This document shows positions 6,739 to 58,085 of a stretch of DNA of 64,000 nt, one piece after another; position 1 is the first letter of the stretch, and every line of letters starts with the position of its first letter. The DNA comes from an uncultured virus (IMG/VR IMGVR_UViG_3300038441_002670) (lineage: Duplodnaviria > Heunggongvirae > Uroviricota > Caudoviricetes): IMG/VR virus record IMGVR_UViG_3300038441_002670. The stretch is one strand, 5' to 3'. The translations under genes were made by a program, and so were the position numbers. The notes under the pieces are model-generated. The model was not told where the DNA came from and did not search any database. It was given only the letters and a program-made list of their open reading frames with translations.

Positions 6739-7164
6739 ATGGAACCGTATGATCCTACCCTTGAAGCCCTGGTCGATGCCATGATTCAGGCCCTCGACCA
6801 CGACGCGGATATGACCCAAGGCTATGTCGCCAAGCTGCGCTCTCTCGACATTACGCTGACACAGATGCTGGCTGATCCCGAGGCCCATGGGCTCGTCGGG
6901 GAGACGCCGAATCCTGAGACAGAGCAGATCATGCGCCAGGCGCTGGGACACCTCGATGCCAAGGCGGGCGATGTGGAGTTGGAGTATCTCCAGGTGCTTG
7001 GGCGGGTGCGCGCGGCGATCGAGAAGGAACTGTTTAAGTGGGCATCCTCACTTGTCCAGCCAGCAGGATTCAGTGGCGAGAGTCAAATCCCTGTCGGTGG
7101 CGGTGAGTGGGAGGCTCATACCGAAGGCGTCTCCGAACCTGCACGGCAGAGACTCACGATCTAG
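6739..7164 (+). CDS. hypothetical protein
   Basis: GGAGG RBS, tightly packed ORF. Confidence 0.6.
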   Translation: MEPYDPTLEALVDAMIQALDHDADMTQGYVAKLRSLDITLTQMLADPEAHGLVGETPNPETEQIMRQALGHLDAKAGDVELEYLQVLGRVRAAIEKELFKWASSLVQPAGFSGESQIPVGGGEWEAHTEGVSEPARQRLTI

Positions 7165-7187: not shown

Positions 7188-7394
7188 ATGGCTGAGTCTA
7201 CGAACATTGAAGCGCTCCAGGACCAACGCAACCAGGAAACGCTTCAGCTCTACCGGCGCAATGCCCTGCGGCATACCCTGAGCGTCCTCGATCCGCAACC
7301 GGGCGATGTGGCGCTCGACTATGCGGCACTCGTCACGCGCTTGCAAGAGGTGCTGGCGCGGGAGGCTGCGCCAGAAGCTTCGCAGGCGACGTAG
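7188..7394 (+). CDS. hypothetical protein
   Basis: AGGAGGT RBS. Confidence 0.55.
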   Translation: MAESTNIEALQDQRNQETLQLYRRNALRHTLSVLDPQPGDVALDYAALVTRLQEVLAREAAPEASQAT

Positions 7395-11222: not shown

Positions 11223-11927
11223 ATGACTCCTGAACGGCGTGCGCGTATTTCCAAGGCAGTCGCCGCAGAAGAACAGGCTGGAAGACCCTGGACGAATCTC
11301 TCTATCTTTCGTATCGTGCGCGGCAACTACGAAGAGGTCGCACAGGTCCTCAAATACCATCGTCGTGGCAAAGTATGTCCTTTATTGATACGGCCATCCT
11401 CCCATCCTGCGCGATTATCGCCTCAAGAAGCTTTTGACCGTCGCGTGAAGATGGGCCAGAAGACCATCAAACTTATTGAGTTCCTCGAAACCTGTCAGGA
11501 AGGGACCTTCTTTTCCTATGCGGTTATTAATACGCATGTTGGTTTTAATGTTCAGGCCGCGCGTGATAATCTGATGACGGCACGCATGTATGTACTTGCG
11601 ACCTGTGGACTCTGGTTTGAACCTGAAGTCAACAAGGGGCTCCATTGTGTCACGGAGTCAGGCAAGCTGGCTGCGACAGACCGTTATAGGCGCGAGGCCC
11701 ATAATAAGCATAAGAAAAATATGCAGATTAATGCGAGTATTGATATAGATGCGTTGCCTATCGAGGACCACCCGCGCTGGGTCGCTGCTATGAGTATCGA
11801 CAGCGCGGTCGCCATAGCGACGGATGAGAAGACCGTTGCCCAGGTGCGTGACCAGCGTGAACCGCAGCCGTTGTTGATTGATCCCCGTCAATATCGTGAA
11901 GTCTTCCAAGGCTTGTTGGCAGGCTAA
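11223..11927 (+). CDS. hypothetical protein with possible N-terminal (KfrA-like) HTH
   Basis: GGAGG RBS, lower GC than its neighbours, preceded by an AT-rich intergenic region. Confidence 0.6.
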   Translation: MTPERRARISKAVAAEEQAGRPWTNLSIFRIVRGNYEEVAQVLKYHRRGKVCPLLIRPSSHPARLSPQEAFDRRVKMGQKTIKLIEFLETCQEGTFFSYAVINTHVGFNVQAARDNLMTARMYVLATCGLWFEPEVNKGLHCVTESGKLAATDRYRREAHNKHKKNMQINASIDIDALPIEDHPRWVAAMSIDSAVAIATDEKTVAQVRDQREPQPLLIDPRQYREVFQGLLAG

Positions 11928-11973
11928 AGAGGATCGTGCGCTGTGATGAGCAGCGGATGGTGAGAAATAGCAC

Positions 11974-12002
11974 TTGACATTTCTGCCAACTCTGCACACT
12001 AT
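11974..12002 (+). promoter_or_regulatory. putative sigma70 promoter upstream of the scaffold/capsid genes
   Basis: TTGACA (11974-11979), 17 bp spacer, weak -10 CACTAT. Confidence 0.45.
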
Positions 12003-12055
12003 CACGGCATATTATGCGCTAGTCGTTGACTAGCAGCACCATCACTGACCGACAT

Positions 12056-12106
12056 ATGGCTTCGACCTGTTCTCACACGAGGGCGGGGGCGAAGCCATTT
12101 TCTTTT
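12056..12106 (+). terminator. putative intrinsic terminator or attenuator
   Basis: ATGGCTTCG...CGAAGCCAT stem followed by TTTCTTTT. Confidence 0.6.
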
Positions 12107-12116
12107 GTGCCCACAT

Positions 12117-12268
12117 GACCAACGCGGGATGCGGCGGTCTCAGGGCCGTTGGTGGGATGCCAAGGGCCTTGCGGGATAGATGCCCCTCAGATGGAGTGGG
12201 ATGCTCTGTCTGTCTTCACGCTGCTGGCGGGATGCCAGCGGGTGCCTTTACACACTGGGATGGTGCGT
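12117..12268 (+). promoter_or_regulatory. array of five GGGAU-loop RNA hairpins in the scaffold gene leader
   Basis: Five stems of different sequence each close an identical GGGAT loop; the last one overlaps the RBS. Confidence 0.8.
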
Positions 12269-12269
12269 T

Positions 12270-13052
12270 ATGGCATTACGACAACTGTTTGAGACCCAAA
12301 GTGAGATTCCAAGTGGGTTGCAAGAGCACTATATCGAAAAAGACGGCAAGTGGCTGTTGCAAACGGACCCACAGTTTGAAGATGTGACGGCCTTGAAGAC
12401 GGTGCTGAATCAGGAGCGGACCTTGCGCCGCGATGTCGAGAAGTCGTTCTCAGACATGAAGATCAAGTTTGAGGGCGTCGACCCTGAGGACTACCGCAAG
12501 CTTCAGGACCGTGTCAAAGGGCTCGACGACGCCGACGTGTACGACAAGCAGGGGATCGAGGTCCTGATTGCCCGACGCACGGAGTCGATGAAAAACGACC
12601 ACGAGCGCCAACTCGCCACGCTGAAGCGCGAGAACGAGCACCTCAAGGCCACGAGTACCGACCTGGATCGCCGCTGGCGCCAAGACCGGATCAAAACGGC
12701 ACTCCTTGATGCTGTCACCAAGTCCGGGGTCCATGAGAAAGCTGTTGATGATGCTGTGCACCGGGGCCTGAGCGTCTTTACCGACCTGGACGAGAAAGGG
12801 AACGTCATTGCCAAAAATGGCGAGGACACGATTTACGGCAAAGATGGCGTCAACGCGCTGAACCCGAGTGAGTGGATCAGCACGCTGAAATCCAGCGGCC
12901 AGGCCTCGCACCTGTGGCCCAGCTCCTCCGGGGGTGGTGCCCCGGCGCATCACGGCGGCAATGGCGCTGGTGGGATTGATTGGAACAGTATCACGAACCC
13001 GGCTGAACGCCTGACGCGGTTCCGCGAGTGGCAGGCGACCCAACAACGCTAA
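12270..13052 (+). CDS. capsid scaffolding protein
   Basis: Immediately upstream of the major capsid gene; HYIEKDGKWLL start, coiled coil, HLWPSSSGGG tail. Confidence 0.85.
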   Translation: MALRQLFETQSEIPSGLQEHYIEKDGKWLLQTDPQFEDVTALKTVLNQERTLRRDVEKSFSDMKIKFEGVDPEDYRKLQDRVKGLDDADVYDKQGIEVLIARRTESMKNDHERQLATLKRENEHLKATSTDLDRRWRQDRIKTALLDAVTKSGVHEKAVDDAVHRGLSVFTDLDEKGNVIAKNGEDTIYGKDGVNALNPSEWISTLKSSGQASHLWPSSSGGGAPAHHGGNGAGGIDWNSITNPAERLTRFREWQATQQR

Positions 13053-13125: not shown

Positions 13126-14061
13126 ATGGCCCTGACTATCGTTGAGGCAAGTAAACTCAATTCCGGTGACGTCGCCCGCACGGCGATCGTGGAAATGTAC
13201 GCAAGAAACAGTGACATATTGCGCGTGCTCCCGTTTGAGGGAATAGCCGGTAACGCCTTGAAATATAACCGCGAAGACATCTTGCCTGGTGTCGGTTTTC
13301 GCGGAGTGAATGAGGGCTTTACTGAGTCGGTGGGCGTGCTCAATCCCATTACCGAGAGCCTCGTTATTGCGGGCGGCGACCTCGACGTTGATCGCTTCAT
13401 CACGCAAACCATGGGGGCGAACCAACGCAGTGTGCAGGAAGGGCTGAAGGTCAAGGCCCTGGCGCATCGCTGGACGCTGGCCTTCATCAAAGGCGACAGT
13501 TCAGCAGATCCCAGAGAATTTGATGGCCTCCAAAGACGGATACCGCCAGGGAGTTCGCAACTGCTCGATGCGGGAGCGACGTCGGGTGGGGACGCGCTGT
13601 CGCTGTTCAAGCTGGATACGCTGATTAGCAAGGTGGATGATCCGAACTACCTTATTATGAACAATACGATGGCGCTGAGGCTGGCGCAGGCGGCGAGGAA
13701 CACCGCTGTCGGCGGGTTCGTAAGCTGGACGCCGGGTCAGTTCGGGCAAAGAATTATGGAATATAACGGTATCCCCATTCTTGTGGCGCGAGAGGATAAC
13801 GTCGGCAACGATATTCTCCCCTTTACTGAGGCCAATCCCGGTGGTGGCGCAGCGGCCAGTACGAGCATCTATGCTGTGCAGTTCGGCGATGGCGGCCTAG
13901 TGGGCATTCAGAACCAGGACATTTCGGTCCGTGATTTGGGGGAGCTTGAGGCGAAGCCTGTTTTTCGTACCCGCGTGGAATGGTACGCCTCAATAGCACT
14001 ATTCCATGGTAGAGCAGTGGCGCGTTTGCGTGGCGTGAAGGACGCCGCCATCGTAGTATAG
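13126..14061 (+). CDS. major capsid protein
   Basis: MALTIVEASKL, FRGVNEG, GGDLDVD, EFDGL, AVARLRG; strong GGAGG RBS; position after the scaffold. Confidence 0.9.
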   Translation: MALTIVEASKLNSGDVARTAIVEMYARNSDILRVLPFEGIAGNALKYNREDILPGVGFRGVNEGFTESVGVLNPITESLVIAGGDLDVDRFITQTMGANQRSVQEGLKVKALAHRWTLAFIKGDSSADPREFDGLQRRIPPGSSQLLDAGATSGGDALSLFKLDTLISKVDDPNYLIMNNTMALRLAQAARNTAVGGFVSWTPGQFGQRIMEYNGIPILVAREDNVGNDILPFTEANPGGGAAASTSIYAVQFGDGGLVGIQNQDISVRDLGELEAKPVFRTRVEWYASIALFHGRAVARLRGVKDAAIVV

Positions 14062-14088: not shown

Positions 14089-14883
14089 CTAGAGTTGATG
14101 CTTCAGGCGGCGCAGGATCGAGGATTTGTCTACCCCGTATCGCGCAGCAAGACGACGCGAGGGCCACTCTCCTGTGGCGTGCAGCGCCAAGGCTTCTTGC
14201 CATTGCGCATCAGTAAGCTTGGCATTTCCGCTGCGCTCGCCGCGTGCCGCACGTTCTCGGCGTCCAGGAATCATCGCAGGATCGCCATACTTCTTGATAA
14301 TCCAGAAGGGCGTGCCCTCCTTGACGCTATAGCGTTCGGCCAGTTGTTTGTACGTCCATTCGCCTGTCGCATACAACGCGCACATCTCAAGTGCCTGGGT
14401 TTTCGTAATTTTCCGTGGGGTGTTGTCACGGCCTTTAGCAATCTTGTCAAGCATGTTGGCTTGGTGCGTCCCAAGCCACAGGTGGGCAGGGTTACAACAC
14501 GCGGGTTGGTCTCCTATCTCCCCCGGACAGTTGTGCAAGACATCCATGCCTTCCGGTGGCCATGTGCTGTGAAAGAGATACCAACTGACTACGTGGGCTC
14601 CGACATTGCGTCGTTGTTCAAGGACGTAGATCGTTCCATAGCCTTTGCCTGCCTTGGCTCCAGTCCACAGCCAGCATTCGTTGGGACCAGCTTTGGCTAC
14701 CTTAGCCCAAAAGCGGTCTGCAAGCGGAGTTGCGTCTTGAGTACTCTTGGCATTTTTGGCACGACAACTCGTAGAACAAAATTCACGGAATATGTCACGA
14801 GTGCGAACGGGAACTATGACAAACGTCTGACTACATGGGGGCCATTGGCATATACGTGTTATAGGCGTAAGACGTGGCTTCAT
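14089..14883 (-). CDS. HNH homing endonuclease with C-terminal HTH repeats
   Basis: RFWAKV, CWLWTGA, GYG, AHVVSW, VLHNC...CCNPAHLWLGTHQANMLD, NAKLT. Confidence 0.92.
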   Translation of the reverse strand: MKPRLTPITRICQWPPCSQTFVIVPVRTRDIFREFCSTSCRAKNAKSTQDATPLADRFWAKVAKAGPNECWLWTGAKAGKGYGTIYVLEQRRNVGAHVVSWYLFHSTWPPEGMDVLHNCPGEIGDQPACCNPAHLWLGTHQANMLDKIAKGRDNTPRKITKTQALEMCALYATGEWTYKQLAERYSVKEGTPFWIIKKYGDPAMIPGRRERAARGERSGNAKLTDAQWQEALALHATGEWPSRRLAARYGVDKSSILRRLKHQL

Positions 14884-30399: not shown

Positions 30400-33300
30400 C
30401 CACTGTCGCCTGTCTCCTGGTGCTGTCGCCGCTGCCAGGGCGTGATGGCCGCCTACGCACCCGCTGCGAGCAGTTCCCGGCGGGCGATCCCTTAGAGGCG
30501 TATCTGCCTGAAGGAGAAGCCCTGGCGCGGGTGTGTATCAACGGCGGCATCATTGCCCCGGAGCACTACGCCCACGTCATCCCCAGGGCAGGCGATGAGA
30601 TCTGGCTGTGGCCTGCGTGGGAGGGGGTGGAAATCTGGCTCCCGCTCGCCTCGATTGCCCTGAGTCTCCTCCTGACGACCGCCTCCCACTTCCTCTTTCG
30701 TCCCAAGCCCCTGCTCCTCCCCCAGCAGCCCCAGATGACCGGGGAAACCGAACGCACGTTTAGCTTTGAGGGCATTCGTACGGCGATCGGTCCGGGCGGC
30801 GTTGTCCCCGTAGTCTATGGGCGGCACCGCATTGGCGGCCAGCTCCTCCTCGCCACCGTGGATCATGTGGCCACCGTGATTGATGACGGCATCAGCAGCC
30901 CTGGCGTGGCCATTGTCGCTGTGGGCCACGGCGAGCCCTCCGACATTGTCTTTGTGACGGCGCCCGGTCATGGCTTTGCCACCGACCAGACGATCCTGAT
31001 TGAAGGCGTCCAGGGTAAAACGGCGGTCAATCGGCAGTGGACGATTGCTGTCGTGGACAATGACACGTTTGTGCTCAAATTCTCGTGGGGTGTGGGCTTC
31101 GACCAACCCTATCTGGGCGGCGGCACCGCCCGCCTGCAAAACGTGGGGGCGCGTAGCTATCAGGCCGTCACCAACCCGCCCACCTTGTCGCTGATGATGG
31201 CCCTGTGCGAAGGCCCGATTGACGCCATCCTCACCGAGACGATCCAGATTAACGGCCAACCCCTGGCGAATTTCCCCGGCGTGCAGGTGTATACGGGTCT
31301 GGGCGAGGCGAACCAACCGGCCATTGCCGAGTTTGGCGGGGCGCGTAACACGTTCAGCGATGGCCGGGAGTTGCTGGTAGAGACCCCGCTGACCTACACG
31401 AGTAATGGCATCTTACATGCGTTTACACTCAATTTCACGTTCGCGGAAGGGCTCTACTTTCTCGATGCCAAGGGCGAGAAAAACTCCAATGCCGTGACCC
31501 TGCGCTACCGCTATGCGCTCACGGGCACGGGAGCCTGGTCCGCCTGGTCGCAGTTTCAGGTGGGGGCGGATCGCACAGCCACCGTCCGCATCGGCGTGCG
31601 CCGTGAGGGGCTCATGCTGGCCCAGTACGATATTCAGATGGAGTTCGTGCACGTCCTCAACAACGATGAGTTGCGCTCGCGCTACCGCCCCTCACTCGAA
31701 AGTGTGACGGAACACCTGCCGGAAACGTACGCCTATCCCCACACCGTCATGCTCGGCTTGCGCGCGGTCGCCACCGACGCCTTGCGGGGGGCGCTCCCCA
31801 ATATTACCGTCGAGGTGCGCGGGCGGCGCGTGCGCGTCGGCACCCTGGCTCCGGTGGAGACGTGGAGTGACAACCCGGCCTGGTGCATGATGGATGCGCT
31901 CACCAATACGCGCTATGGCCGCGGCGTGTCCGATAGCGAGATCGACCTCACGTCCTTTAGCGTCTTCGCGGCCTACTGCGCGGAAACGATTGCCGGGGAA
32001 ACCCGCCACACGCTCAACTATGTCCTCGACCGCGAGACGCGGGCGCAGCAGTTTTTCCTCGAAACGATGGGCGGGGCGCGGGGTTTGCTCCTCAAGTCGG
32101 CCGGCCAGTGGCAAGCGCGGCCCACCCGCCCGGAGACGCCGACATGCCTCCTCTCCTGGGCCAGTGTGAGTAATGTGCGCCTCACGTATCTGCGCGATGC
32201 CGATAACATCAATGTCCTCGAAGCCCGCTTTGCCAATGAAGACCAGGACTACGAACAGGATGTGCAGACCTGGCCCACGATTGACCAGTGGCCCCCCGAA
32301 ATCCACAAGCAGAGTCTCGACTTGCGCGGCATTACCAAGCCCTCGCGGGTGCAGCGGGCACTCCAGTTTGAACTCAATCGGCGGCGCTATGAGAATGTCC
32401 AGTTAGAGATGGACTGCTCCCCCGAAGCCCTCCCCATGCAACTGCATGACCTCTTTCGCTTTGCCCACCCGCTCCCCGGCTGGGGTGTCTCAGGGCGCAT
32501 TATGCCAGGGTCCACGAATGCGATCCTCCAGGTGGATGAGGACTGCCTGATCGAGTTCGGGCTCTATTACTGTGTCTACGTGCGGCATGAAGATGACACA
32601 ATCGAGATGCGCAATATCATCAACATTGTGGTGGGCTCCGTGCGGACGCTCTATCTCCAGACCGTGCTGAACCAGACACCCGCGCCGCGCACCGCCACGT
32701 GGGTGTTTGGGCGGCTGGCACCGGATTTCGTGACGGATGCCTCGACGCGCACCTTTCGCGTGACGAACCTGCAACGCCGCTCCGATACCACGGTCCATGT
32801 CGAAGCCATCATCCATAACCCGGCGATCTATGATGAGCCCACGGCGACACCCCTACCCCCCATCACGACGCTGTTTAACCCGCTGGGGCCTCCCCCGCCG
32901 CTCACGATCCTCATAGCGACCGAGGCCACCCGGGTGCAGGCCAGTGGCGCCAGCTTGCGGGTGGTCAACCTGTCGTGGGATGTGGCGGAGTTGAGTAGCG
33001 CTTATGCGCCCTATGCCGGGGCGACCATTCTGCGCCGGACGGTCCTGGTGAGTGGCACGATGGGGCAAGCCCAGGCGGGCGCGATTGCCTTCGGGGCGAT
33101 CAGCGACCCGAACGACCCCAATATCAACTATATCCAGCTCACGCAGGTGCGTGGGCATGTGCTGGACTGGGATGACTATACGGTGGTCAGCGGGGCGACG
33201 TACCAGTATCGGGTGATCCCGGTGTCGAGCCTCGGGGTGCCGAACAACGCGGGCTCCCGCGAGGTCCTGATCCATGTGGCCGGGCCGACCACGCCGGGCT

Positions 33301-38226: not shown

Positions 38227-38733
38227 ATGCAACGATGGCTGATCCTGCTCGGTCTCTTCCTGGGGAGTGTCGGGGTCGCCCTGGCGGCGGTGACCCCCGG
38301 CAGTATTGTGACACTCCAGGCACCTGCGGTGGGGATGGTGCAGTTCCTCCAGGGTACGGATAACGCGGGCACCTACAAAACACTCTTTACCGCAGGCGTC
38401 GGGGGCACGGCGAGTTCGAGCGGCTCCAAATGTAATGCCATGTGGTTGACGACCGATGATGGGACGGCCACGCATCTTGTGACGGTGCAGGTGTCGCGCG
38501 GCGGCATCCGCTATGGCGGGGTGGCGGTGGCGACGACGCTCGGGCAGGGCTTTGTGAATGGCACGCCGCCGCTGAACCTTTTCGCGCCGACCATTTGGCC
38601 TGGCTTGCCCCTGGATAGCGACGGCAATCCCTATCTGCAACTCATGGCAGGCGATCTGATTCAGGCCACCTTTGCCACGGCCCTGACAGCGGCGACCCGG
38701 ATCAGTATCGTAGTGAGCTGTGGTGATTACTAA
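38227..38733 (+). CDS. signal-peptide beta-rich protein
   Basis: MQRWLILLGLFLGSVGVALA|A. Confidence 0.7.
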   Translation: MQRWLILLGLFLGSVGVALAAVTPGSIVTLQAPAVGMVQFLQGTDNAGTYKTLFTAGVGGTASSSGSKCNAMWLTTDDGTATHLVTVQVSRGGIRYGGVAVATTLGQGFVNGTPPLNLFAPTIWPGLPLDSDGNPYLQLMAGDLIQATFATALTAATRISIVVSCGDY

Positions 38734-38737
38734 CGGG

Positions 38738-38766
38738 TTGATTTGTACTATGGATTATGGTATAAT
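38738..38766 (+). promoter_or_regulatory. sigma70 promoter of the EndoVII gene
   Basis: TTGATT-N17-TATAAT with extended -10 TG. Confidence 0.8.
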
Positions 38767-38845
38767 GGCAACACTACAAACGCACTGCCCTGTCGCACGA
38801 ACGACAGGGACAGCACTAACCATACGCTCTGGAATGGAGAGACGC

Positions 38846-39376
38846 ATGGCTACCTCTCAGCTTACCCTATTTCCTAAGCCACTTCTACGCGAGAAACGTT
38901 GTTGTACTTGCAAGGTATGGTTGCCGCTAGAGAAATTTGGCCGCAACAAAGCACGACCAGACGGACTTCAGGACTACTGCGCAATCTGTCACAGGGCCGC
39001 AGTGAAGCGCTACTATGACAAGACTCCAGGGGCGAAAGAGCGTGCCAAAGCCGTTTCGGCTGCGTGGAATAAAGCGAATTACGAACGAAGAAAGCGTATA
39101 GAGCTTCGGAGCAAACTTAAAGAAAAAGGTTTGACGATGGAGCAGTACGACGAAGCCATAATTCGTCAAGAAGGTGGTTGTGGGATTTGTGGCGAAAAGG
39201 AAAATCGCCATACACTTCAGACACGTCTTGTTATTGACCATGATCACGTCACCGGGAAATTTCGGGGTTTGCTCTGCCATAACTGCAACGTGTCTCTAGG
39301 TCTTATGCGTGACAATATTGAGCTACTAGAGCGAGCCATTGCCTATCTCAAAGTATCGCAGGAGAGTCCCTTATGA
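38846..39376 (+). CDS. endonuclease VII-like HNH protein
   Basis: CGIC, LVIDHDHVTGKFRGLLCHNCN.LG. Confidence 0.92.
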   Translation: MATSQLTLFPKPLLREKRCCTCKVWLPLEKFGRNKARPDGLQDYCAICHRAAVKRYYDKTPGAKERAKAVSAAWNKANYERRKRIELRSKLKEKGLTMEQYDEAIIRQEGGCGICGEKENRHTLQTRLVIDHDHVTGKFRGLLCHNCNVSLGLMRDNIELLERAIAYLKVSQESPL

Positions 39377-56157: not shown

Positions 56158-56472
56158 TTAGTGTTCATGGGATGTCCTTTCAGCGAGGATCTGAAGTTTC
56201 GCCAGCGTTGTCTGGCCGAGCATGCTCGCGGGCACCAAGACGTCGCCCTGGAGTAGGCGCAGGAGATACTGCGCTTCGGCGGGCGTTACGGTCGGGTGCG
56301 GTGCGGGCGTGGGCAGGGCATTCCACACGGCGCCGCAATGCGGGCACGTACAGAGGAGCCAGGTGCCCTGTGTCGTCAGTCGGCTGACGACGTCCGCGAC
56401 GGTCTGCTGACAGGCCATGCACCGGGCGTGAGTAGCACTTTTAGGAGGGTTCATCTTTCGTGTTCTCCACAC
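56158..56472 (-). CDS. Zn-ribbon hypothetical protein
   Basis: CxxC...CPHC motifs. Confidence 0.45.
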   Translation of the reverse strand: MWRTRKMNPPKSATHARCMACQQTVADVVSRLTTQGTWLLCTCPHCGAVWNALPTPAPHPTVTPAEAQYLLRLLQGDVLVPASMLGQTTLAKLQILAERTSHEH

Positions 56473-57115
56473 AGAAGAGCGGCAATGTCTCTACGCTCAA
56501 TGCTTGCTGAGCCTGTAAGTTTGCATGGTGTGCAAGATAGCGCCGGGCTGCGCGTGACCACTCTGACTTCTCAAGATTGCCGAGTCTCAAATTGCATCGC
56601 GTACAGAGGAGCCCGCGTACGACACCTGTGGTGTGATCATGATCAACCGCAAGAGATCTGGTGTATTCGGGACGTCCACAAATCGCACAGGCACCACCTT
56701 GGGCATTGAAGAGTGTTTCATAGGCCTCTAGCGTGATAGCAAATCTGCGGCGTAGCCAACCCTGCCGCTTTATACGCTCTGTGCGCTCTGGGTCGCGTTC
56801 GTCCCGTTGCTGTCGTAGCTTTTTTACACAATCCCGGCATTGCCCTCGATGTTTCCCGGTTTTCTTGTCAAAAAAGAAGACTTCCCATGGCAGCATCGTT
56901 TGGCACGAATTACATAGCCGCTTGGTGCCATCTTCAGAAATAGGGATAAAAGGCCACTTCACGACGTGAGGATCGCCATGACGTTTCCAACGGTAGTAGT
57001 GTTTCTGACAATAACCAAAAGAAGCCCATGGCGTAGAACAGCCATCAACAAGACACGGCGCACCAGTCTTCGGTCGGTTTGCGGGAGGTGGTGTGATAAA
57101 CTTAGAGATAGCCAT
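56441..57115 (-). CDS. endonuclease VII-like HNH protein
   Basis: C.VDGC...GYCQKHY.RW.RHGDP; CAIC, LAVDHDHTTGVVRGLLCTRCN. Confidence 0.92.
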   Translation of the reverse strand: MAISKFITPPPANRPKTGAPCLVDGCSTPWASFGYCQKHYYRWKRHGDPHVVKWPFIPISEDGTKRLCNSCQTMLPWEVFFFDKKTGKHRGQCRDCVKKLRQQRDERDPERTERIKRQGWLRRRFAITLEAYETLFNAQGGACAICGRPEYTRSLAVDHDHTTGVVRGLLCTRCNLRLGNLEKSEWSRAARRYLAHHANLQAQQALSVETLPLFCVENTKDEPS

Positions 57116-58085
57116 GGCACCTGTGCTCCTATCACAGCGTGAAATGGTTAGAGTCCTAGCAGTGTGTCGAGCACTACTAGGACTTGTTTTTTGTAGCCTA
57201 CAGTATAACATATTTTAGCACCACATAAGAATAAAAATACAAAAATTTCAAATAGTTATGCGTCCCTGGGTGGGTTCATCGTGCCCTCCTCTCAGGCATG
57301 GGTCTGGTGATACTGGTGGCAGTAGGGACAGCGGTATACCTTCGCCTTCCTGGGCTTGTGCCGCTGCTGCTGCTGCGCCTGGAGGACGCGATGCGCCGCC
57401 TGGGCGCTCGGGTAGGCGATCTTGCCCGCGCACCCGCTCGTGGGATCAGTCGGGAGCGCGTCGGGGGAGGCCGTGAGTCTCATGAGAAGGGCTCCTCTAG
57501 AAGCCGAGGGGGAGTTGGCGCGGGTCCGCGTCTTCCGTGCTCGGTGCGTCCTGGCAGCGGTGACAGACCGTGATGCCGGGCCACGCATAGGGCTGGACCC
57601 GTGCCCATTCCGCCTCGGTGACGCTGGTACAGGCGGCCTTGGGGCCACGGCCGAACGCACAGAGCCAGGTGAGGTCGCGGCCCAGGAGCGTCTGGACCCG
57701 GGTGCGGGCGCGGTGGGAGGCGAGCGCGATGTTCATGATGCGGCCTCCTTCGCGTCTTGGGGGTGGCGTTCCCACACGACCCCGCCGGACGCCGCGCGAT
57801 AGGGATTGGTCGAGCCCCACAGGATGCCGCAGTGGGGGCATTCCATCAGCGTCACCTGCTCCAAGTCGGGACTCTGCCGCAGCGTGGCCGTGGTTACGAC
57901 CGCCCGGCAGGCATGGCACCGCGCCTGCCTCGGCTCGTGCGCTGGCACGATGGCCGTGTTCTCCGGGTTGCAGCGCTCGCATAGGCTGCCAGCCAGCGCC
58001 AGGGTTTCCTCCTGGCACGAGGGACACCGAAGCAGGACGGGCTCGGCGGGTGCGGCGGTCGGGATGTGGAGATGCGTGCGATGCT

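Follow-up and report, generated by a model that had tools for sequence, protein, structure and literature searches.

Does the leader of a phage head scaffolding gene carry its own regulatory RNA element, and if so, what reads it? The question is raised by a 64,000-nt stretch of a soil phage, the uncultured Caudoviricetes record IMGVR_UViG_3300038441_002670 from IMG/VR (this whole stretch is hereinafter called the window), where the scaffold gene (12270..13052, + strand, 260 aa, phrog_206, E 6e-33) is preceded by five small hairpins with unrelated stems and one and the same pentaloop, GGGAU. A preliminary description, based on the letters of the window alone, interpreted this array as a multivalent translational operator for the scaffold protein or for the host regulator CsrA, or else as a CsrA sponge built into the late message. 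Judging by comparison of related leaders, the hairpins are a conserved, uncatalogued, apparently cis-regulatory RNA element located in the 5' leader of the scaffold message, and probably of the capsid message as well.

All five hairpins, with the coordinates given for them initially, are confirmed, and all are on the + strand. Hairpin 1 (H1, 12117..12139) is formed by GACC (12117-12120) and GGTC (12136-12139), with CGC/GCG directly around the loop (12126-12130), and hairpin 2 (H2, 12142..12170), by AGGGCC (12142-12147) and GGCCTT (12165-12170), with TTGGT/GCCAA around the loop (12154-12158). The arms of hairpin 3 (H3, 12188..12212; 12188-12197 and 12203-12212) make 10 bp including three G-U pairs, with the loop at 12198-12202, and those of hairpin 4 (H4, 12221..12241; 12221-12228 and 12234-12241) make 8 bp, with the loop at 12229-12233. 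Hairpin 5 (H5, 12253..12265; CACT 12253-12256, GGTG 12262-12265, loop 12257-12261) holds the Shine-Dalgarno (SD) sequence 8 nt before the ATG: as initially noticed, its GGGAUGG is the only SD-like element before the scaffold start at 12270. Other genes of the window have canonical SD sites, for example AGGAGGTGAT before the open reading frame (ORF) near 7188 and GGAGGA before the capsid gene. A sixth GCGGGAU (12171..12177, +), also reported initially, is unpaired, with no convincing stem around it, and is probably a decayed hairpin copy.

The minimum free energy fold of the RNA 12100-12290, computed as the preliminary description had suggested, consists of exactly these five GGGAU-pentaloop hairpins. 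Moreover, when the entire window was scanned with a covariance model trained on 41 upstream hairpins of the relatives and the window, the top five matches were H1–H5 (19.9, 20.9, 17.2, 23.3, and 18.2 bits, respectively). H4 is thus the best match in the window, and H5 is ranked fourth though it is absent from the training set. The next two matches, at 32969-32989 (+, 16.7 bits, GGGAU) and 7101-7121 (+, 15.6 bits, GGGAG), are inside ORFs and probably arise by chance.

The loop hexamer itself is not enriched in the window, with 44 GGGATG found on both strands versus 52 expected, but five of them lie on the + strand within 137 bases of the scaffold leader. A perfect flanking stem of at least 4 bp is present at five of the 136 GGGAT, four in the leader and one at 32977 inside a tail ORF (H1 has only 3 bp adjacent to the loop, hence it is outside this count), and at none of those on the – strand of the window; among random window positions such a stem is found in 2.2%. 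A chance origin of the array is excluded.

For comparative analysis, scans with the scaffold protein yielded 26 and 30 IMG/VR loci and 24 metagenome loci, giving 51 leaders, 26 of which are distinct in the last 200 nt; one more phage, L083, was recovered subsequently. Twenty-five distinct leaders of at least 150 nt, all from uncultured phages whose scaffolds are 58–89% identical, were compared. A first profile search of genome contigs with the scaffold alignment gave no match. The metagenome locus L057 is identical to the window; furthermore, positions 11900-12202 are covered, with zero differences, by one contig of X3, one of four DNA runs, while no contig in these four runs covers the rest of the array beyond 12202.

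Full-length leaders have a common layout: a terminator-like hairpin with its T-run, GTGCC, hairpin A, hairpin B, the SD hairpin, and the ATG. The loop of hairpin A is at approximately –67 to –76 from the ATG and that of hairpin B, at approximately –36 to –45; their counterparts in the window are H3 and H4, respectively. The SD hairpin of the relatives, at –9 to –18, has the form CACC[GAGAG]GGUG or ..CC[GGGAG]GG.., with the SD within the loop and the 3' arm; the window phage and L049 have GGGAU in this loop. No SD hairpin is seen in L051, L076, and L078, where the SD is an ordinary GGAG and CTGGGATG is found at the scaffold start, so that the loop hexamer GGGAUG recurs at the initiation codon, nor is it recognisable in L075 and L053, the latter having AAAGGAGAG. 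There is one upstream hairpin in L017, L019, L022, and L055 and two in most other leaders, while the window phage has four, which together with the SD hairpin form the largest array seen; the relatives have no counterparts of H1, H2, and the decayed sixth copy. This variation, from one or two copies plus the SD hairpin to four plus one, argues for additive sites rather than for one fixed fold.

Stems are strongly associated with the loop motif in leaders, as a count made without selection of hairpins shows. Between the terminator and the ATG of the 25 leaders (the whole 300 nt were counted in two leaders where the terminator was not located), 66 out of 101 GNGAN pentamers are enclosed in perfect stems of at least 4 bp, compared to just 35 out of 773 in the scaffold–capsid coding DNA of the same loci (Fisher 3e-47). 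When 41 distinct upstream hairpins were aligned in register, 98.4% of stem cells were paired, a figure that is partly circular because the hairpins had been picked for having a stem. In the same alignment, changes on both sides of a pair occur in 75 cells, compared to 22.1 +/- 3.4 in shuffles (none of 500 reach the observed value), and sliding the partner by 1–3 columns decreases pairing to 24–53%. Covariation across scaffold leaders, named initially as a check of the array, is thus indeed observed, stems covarying under a fixed loop in the 25 leaders, and the hairpin structure is real and under selection.

In all 41 hairpins, the loop is closed by a G on the 3' side, and loop bases G1, G3, and A4 never change. 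The closing G is paired with U in 21 hairpins and with C in 20, and the second pair is purine–pyrimidine in 39 out of 41. Hence, the loop follows the rule Y[G-N-G-A-N]G, and it could be regarded as a GNRA tetraloop with one extra base. The most frequent loop is GGGAU (29 hairpins), followed by GGGAC, GGGAG, and GAGAU (3 each), GUGAG (2), and GAGAG (1); two more GAGAU loops come from L083. A fixed loop and fixed top pairs on otherwise free stems are the pattern expected of a site read by some factor. In addition, 40 out of 246 stem cells are G-U pairs, which means that only the mRNA-sense strand can form the structure, as G-U pairs had suggested from the beginning.

Three other accounts of the array were considered and rejected. 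It is not a coding sequence (an in-frame ATG is present at 12180, in the ORF 12115-12387), as the proteins of the relatives start at MALKQ, the length of the region varies by whole hairpins, and changes in the stems are compensatory. A DNA-level palindrome does not agree with the G-U pairs, with conservation of the center and not of the arms, and with zero copies on the minus strand. Finally, kissing of the loops with RNA of the leader or early coding region was rejected: an exact complement occurs at inconsistent places in 11 out of 20 leaders of the first scaffold type (the types are defined below), and it is absent from all three leaders of the second type, from the single one of the third type, and from the window; no conserved complementary RNA partner is found between –210 and +300.

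The element is absent from the catalogs that we searched. Rfam 15 gives no match at the gathering threshold in the window and nothing relevant up to E <= 10 in 11800-12500, the best weak match near the array being a ctRNA_p42d-like one on the terminator (E 0.28). A blastn search of the array region against 50,697 phage records yielded zero matches. The literature searched on stem-loops of cyanophage P-SS2, on hairpins in scaffold and capsid leaders, and on pentaloop operators of phages contained nothing on such hairpins, and the words "hairpin" and "motif" have zero occurrences in the body of the P-SS2 genome paper.

The distribution of the element was considered at several distances. In four related records (63–99 kb), the only strong model matches are the scaffold-leader hairpins, themselves members of the training set, all other matches having E >= 0.24; together with the scan of the window, this confines the element to the scaffold leader in this phage group. 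Out of 13 cultured phages examined, only P-SS2 has hairpins of the GNGAN type, gggcGUGAUgccc 18 nt before the scaffold ATG and, in the capsid leader after a terminator, ggcGUGAUgcc and agggcGAGAGgctct (GUGAU and GAGAG loops). These were found by eye; the GC-rich covariance model matched nothing in P-SS2 or in Mwe-JY26, the latter having no clear GNGAN hairpin. The hairpins of P-SS2 share with ours the loop rule, the closing pair, and the location, whereas the window element differs in being limited to the scaffold leader, in its GC-rich stems and GGGAU loops, in the five copies, and in its merger with the SD.

Further, 37 distant capsid relatives from bacterial genomes and metagenome-assembled genomes (MAGs), 31 of them with a recognisable scaffold ORF, were subjected to a strict scan requiring a stem of at least 5 bp. 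It produced 33 plus-strand and 8 minus-strand matches, and 17 of the former fall in scaffold or capsid leaders, which make up 2.7% of bases (binomial 1.5e-18). Leader hairpins are found in 8 out of the 31 loci, from Gallionella, Burkholderiales, Telluria, a betaproteobacterial MAG, an Anaerohalosphaeraceae MAG, Stigonema, Thermosynechococcus, and Nostoc sp. FACHB-110. In all eight, the scaffold is best matched by phrog_206, so that carriers constitute 8 out of 21 such loci and none of the nine with other scaffold types. The window array has all features of this Y[GNGAN]G class of head-gene leaders, namely, location on the sense strand, free stems, and association with the phrog_206/phrog_212 module.

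Five other cultured phages with the scaffold/capsid module have different fixed loops at the same leader places. These are ACGG in Escherichia phage ECP2304 (L139; 1113-1225 and 2096-2220), as in GUCAC-ACGG-GUGAC and CCUUCC-ACGG-GGAAAGG; AUGU or AUGG in Pseudomonas phage MiCath (L141); and CAUGG in RDJL3, R7M, and VpKK5 (L146, L147, and L145). Taken together, the constancy of loops and top pairs over free stems, the variation in copy number, and loop classes specific to lineages point to a lineage-specific trans-acting reader. By sequence comparison, this reader seems to travel with the head module, and we think it probable, by a modest measure, that the loops are recognised by a factor encoded by the phage.

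The leading, if tentative, candidate for a phage-encoded protein reading the loops is the scaffold itself, acting via its N-terminal 45–65 residues or so. The second loop base follows the type of the scaffold N-terminus. With the type-1 N-terminus, it is G in all 35 upstream hairpins from 20 phages; with type 2 (..QTEPS..IPKLQ..; L014, L077, and L083), A in all six hairpins; and in L053, whose first 45 residues represent a third type, U in both hairpins (GUGA). Since stems are unrelated among the three type-2 phages and their promoter-to-terminator modules differ, the A common to them has been maintained rather than merely inherited from a recent ancestor. Seven scaffold alignment columns are exclusive to type 2, and all of them are in residues 11–43 (codons at 12300-12398, +, in the window), with none in the other 217 residues; the capsid protein has no type-2-exclusive columns, and the capsid proteins of GAGA phages do not form a clade.

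A natural recombinant is consistent with the same link. In the mosaic L014, the promoter-to-terminator part is 88–95% identical to that of type-1 phages, and so is the 3' half, from nt 371 (87–95%), whereas codons 4–43 are 80–82% identical to type-2 L083 and about 50%, to type 1. Searches for more cases added little: of the nine loci picked up by a pattern scan for GAGA-type leaders, five come from the three lineages already known and the other four match by chance, and scans with N-terminal peptides added L083 alone to type 2 and nothing to type 3.

The layout of the leader also resembles that of an autogenous operator, as a conserved structured element is located at the ribosome-binding site (RBS), with the SD inside H5 and hairpin B next upstream, and is limited to the leader of the gene that would be regulated. 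In the AlphaFold model of the scaffold (pLDDT 80.6), which mostly comprises long helices, residues 15–30 form a small helix and a beta-hairpin, and the long helix 36–66 bears invariant E49, R50, R53, R54, E57, and K58. It is possible, though rather doubtful, that this N-terminal part is a sequence-specific RNA-binding module reading GNRA-like pentaloop hairpins in its own leader.

A number of observations weigh against the scaffold as the reader. The loops are less than 150 nt from the N-terminal codons, and hence they may be associated simply because both are inherited within one recombination block; besides, only three type-2 lineages and one type-3 lineage are present in the collections searched. 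The second base varies elsewhere: SD hairpins of four type-1 leaders are GAGAG, and mixtures occur within one leader, U, A, G in L107, A, G, G in L115, and U, U, A (GUGAU, GUGAU, GAGAG) in P-SS2, and therefore this base may not be the specificity determinant. Cyanobacterial scaffolds with hairpins in their leaders (P-SS2, L126, and L134) have no N-terminal mini-domain of the EKDGKW type. Hairpins of P-SS2-type phages also precede the capsid gene, which would suit a general head regulator as well as the scaffold. As most hairpins are 36–144 nt upstream of the ATG, direct occlusion could be exerted only by the last one. The folding energy of 12100-12290 (z = –1.68, with 9 out of 200 shuffles folding as well) is by itself weak support for the array.

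Nevertheless, autoregulation by the scaffold is the best supported reading of the element, though on circumstantial grounds and with somewhat less than even odds. Scaffolds are known to oligomerise. The N-terminal part of free scaffold molecules would recognise the loops, and multivalent occupancy would extend to hairpin B, where the 30S footprint begins on the 5' side, and to the SD hairpin, whose occupation would lower initiation or message stability. Assembly of the procapsid with the capsid protein would then use up free scaffold and relieve the block, as in autoregulation of the P22 type. With five copies, compared to two or three in the relatives, the response in the window phage would be more multivalent, and the GGGAU loop at the SD and two extra copies should provide stronger feedback. 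In this scheme, the existence of the reader, its identity as the scaffold, and the sign of the effect are all presumed. Of the functions proposed initially, the general idea of a multivalent operator acting after transcription, on plus-strand RNA before the scaffold gene, fits all our findings, and the scaffold as its reader is upheld circumstantially.

Post-transcriptional self-control of scaffold synthesis in phage P22 has been known since 1985, and was reportedly the subject of papers by Wyckoff and Casjens and by Casjens and Adams of that year. We know of no RNA operator or target defined for it. An N-terminal role in autoregulation by the P22 scaffolding protein gp8 is indicated in a recent preprint (bioRxiv 10.1101/2022.12.13.520362). 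The two systems would be alike in that free scaffold acts post-transcriptionally on its own synthesis, and here a leader RNA element tracks the N-terminal variant of the scaffold; they differ in the scaffold family, phrog_206 in our case, and here the link is an association of sequences.

Autogenous operators with a known reader, such as those of MS2 and PP7 coat proteins, T4 gp32 and RegA, ThrRS, and ribosomal proteins, are single or double sites. Our element resembles them as a small hairpin, fixed in its loop bases but free in its stem, located in or near the RBS of a structural or self-regulated gene. It is distinguished by the array of two to five copies extending to 144 nt upstream, by its occurrence in a double-stranded DNA phage, and by a different loop.

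An unlikely alternative to the scaffold is another phage-encoded factor, such as an RNA-binding regulator, a RegB-like endoribonuclease timing or balancing synthesis of head proteins, the MuF-like protein, or the portal. A fixed loop on free stems and group-specific loop classes would suit any reader encoded by the phage, and the presence of hairpins before both scaffold and capsid genes in P-SS2 fits this possibility. However, no candidate gene was identified, and genes upstream of the leader differ among the relatives; the type-2 portion of the mosaic L014 is limited to the leader and some 45 initial scaffold codons, and a distant reader gene would have to be exchanged too. The capsid protein does not covary with loop base 2. 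As for RegB, the T4 enzyme cleaves GGAG/U sites with GGA unpaired and the following base constrained, the consensus being GGAGRAYARAA with an A-rich 3' context (PMC3014915). GGGAU and GGGAG loops closed by G resemble such sites, but the 3' context of our loops is a GC-rich stem and GGA is not conserved, so that the hairpins do not belong to the RegB class.

Action in cis with no dedicated reader, that is, stabilisation of the message against 5'-end-dependent decay or SD-like standby and landing sites for the 30S subunit that raise the output of highly abundant head proteins, seems improbable to us. Such a role would be consistent with the placement of the array, in a 5' leader between a terminator-like hairpin, which it follows immediately, and highly expressed genes, and variable copy number suits an additive effect. 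Moreover, GGGAU, GGGAG, and GUGAGG loops resemble the SD core, and the loop of the SD hairpin is of the same class. On the other hand, stabilisers need neither invariant G1, G3, and A4 nor two oriented top pairs, the loops GCGAU (L131) and GUGAU (P-SS2, L134, and L126) are not SD-like, and different fixed loops at the same place in different phage groups would not be expected of generic stability or ribosome landing.

It is quite unlikely that the hairpins are boxB-like sites of an N-type processive antiterminator, an arginine-rich phage protein ensuring read-through of the late operon. In lambdoid nut sites, situated between an early promoter and the terminators to be overridden, boxB is recognised by N through its arginine-rich motif. 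With one nucleotide counted as an insertion, the GNGA-type pentaloop would correspond to a GNRA tetraloop, the fold type bound by N proteins of lambda and P22, and common to boxB and our element are a short hairpin, a purine-rich loop of 5 nt, possibly of GNRA-like fold, and conserved, phage-specific loop identity; the position beside a terminator-like hairpin and a conserved promoter-like site also agrees. But the hairpins are 3' and not 5' of the terminator-like hairpin in every leader and in the capsid leader of P-SS2, reach the RBS of a late structural gene, with the last copy carrying the SD, and are present in two to five copies, compared to one boxB per nut site, and no terminator-like site is observed between the scaffold and capsid genes. 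Pfam and PHROGs scans of the window ORFs reveal no N-like protein, although small N proteins are easily missed.

The least probable reader, and by our estimate a highly improbable one, is host CsrA/RsmA, whether the GGA loops are taken as a translational operator or as a sponge in the late message: CsrA requires the GGA triplet, and GGA is missing from 8 out of 43 upstream hairpins in four lineages with unchanged architecture (GAGA in L014, L077, and L083, GUGA in L053), the three GAGA leaders having no GGA from the first hairpin of the array to the ATG. The proposal was a natural one, given that the CsrA SELEX consensus has the core RGGAUG, with which GGGAUG agrees, and that the window array has six GGA motifs, five in loops, including one at the SD, as in known CsrA/RsmA sites and CsrB/RsmZ sponges, and one unpaired. 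As for genomes and RNA families, Pfam CsrA matches none of 77 window ORFs, PF02599 is found in none of five genomes or MAGs with related hairpins (MAGs may be incomplete), with positive controls in Escherichia coli, Bacillus subtilis, and Thermotoga maritima, and no RNA of the CsrB, CsrC, or RsmX/Y/Z families is detected at the gathering threshold in the window or up to E = 10 in 11800-12500. The host of P-SS2 is a cyanobacterium. So the part of the initial proposal concerning CsrA, either as operator or as sponge, is not supported as a common function of the class; this conclusion applies to the class and not to the GGA-rich array of this particular phage.

Upstream of the array, a promoter-like site is observed at 11974..12002 (+), with TTGACA at 11974-11979, a 17-nt spacer, and CACTAT at 11997-12002. 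It was not listed by a scan with the promoter consensus because its –10 element is weak, but its upstream edge, AAATAG..TTGAC, is retained in relatives whose other upstream DNA is unrelated; its role as a promoter is presumed. It is followed by a short structured stretch and an intrinsic-terminator-like hairpin (12058..12107, +) formed by GGCTTCG (12058-12064) and CGAAGCC (12090-12096) and followed by ATTTTCTTTTG, a T-run; in every full-length relative, such a hairpin with GTGCC is directly 5' of the array. The promoter-like module (AAATAGTTCTTGAC.., with a weak –10) is conserved between 11960-12108 of the window and the leaders L001–L079, with a –10-like element (CATAAT or TATTAT) in the first transcribed bases and the terminator-like hairpin about 100 nt downstream. 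This order of promoter, –10-like element, and terminator-like hairpin recalls lambda PR'–tR' with antitermination by Q. No fewer than three unrelated forms of the promoter-to-terminator part, including an AT-rich palindrome, adjoin this array in different phages.

The window is a siphovirus-like phage genome. The head genes upstream of the scaffold, identified by PHROGs and Pfam scans, encode the large terminase, the portal, and the MuF-like head protein, and approximately 3.5 kb of genes without recognised function separate the latter from the scaffold gene. Downstream are genes for the major capsid protein (13126..14061, +, phrog_212, Pfam GP7), an HNH endonuclease on the opposite strand, a head–tail adaptor, the tape measure, and tail fibres. 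The capsid gene is probably on the same message as the scaffold gene, and in the window phage such hairpins are missing from its own leader of 73 nt. The HNH endonuclease gene with a C-terminal HTH (14089-14883, –), directly 3' of the capsid gene, is probably a homing element; an endonuclease VII domain is encoded in two separate genes (38720-39376, +, and 56441-57211, –). A QueD-like (PTPS) gene (428-1171) and a GTP cyclohydrolase I (FolE) gene (1733-2605), both of the 7-deazaguanine pathway, suggest 7-deazaguanine modification of DNA as in Queuovirinae, and several cultured phages with related scaffolds belong to this subfamily. A 10-bp hairpin within the QueD-like coding sequence, ggtgtgcggc-GUGAC-gctgcatacc (at 923, +), obeys the Y[GNGAN]G rule. 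No tRNA genes were found in the window. The capsid protein has 3739 relatives at E <= 1e-20, whose names, one Spirochaetota MAG apart, are uninformative as to the host.

What the window adds is the largest array of this kind, the merger of a hairpin with the SD, the exclusion of CsrA as a common function and of the capsid protein as the base-2-specific partner, and the link to the scaffold N-terminus. It also supplies a concrete, conserved, and easily mutated RNA element in leaders of a very large scaffold gene family, with a natural allelic series, GGGA, GAGA, and GUGA, paired with three scaffold N-terminal variants, which makes the question directly testable. If the scaffold N-terminus reads the loops, this class of elements would be the missing operator of scaffold autoregulation, and the feedback threshold would be determined by the number of copies, which is five here. 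There would then be a wider code, with its own loop for each head-module lineage, GNGAN here and in cyanophages and AYGG in Queuovirinae, and the ACGG hairpins of ECP2304 would offer a tractable E. coli model of an analogous element. If the reader is some other factor, the hairpins would still represent an unrecognised layer of head-gene control, absent from Rfam and common to phages of Betaproteobacteria and Cyanobacteria.

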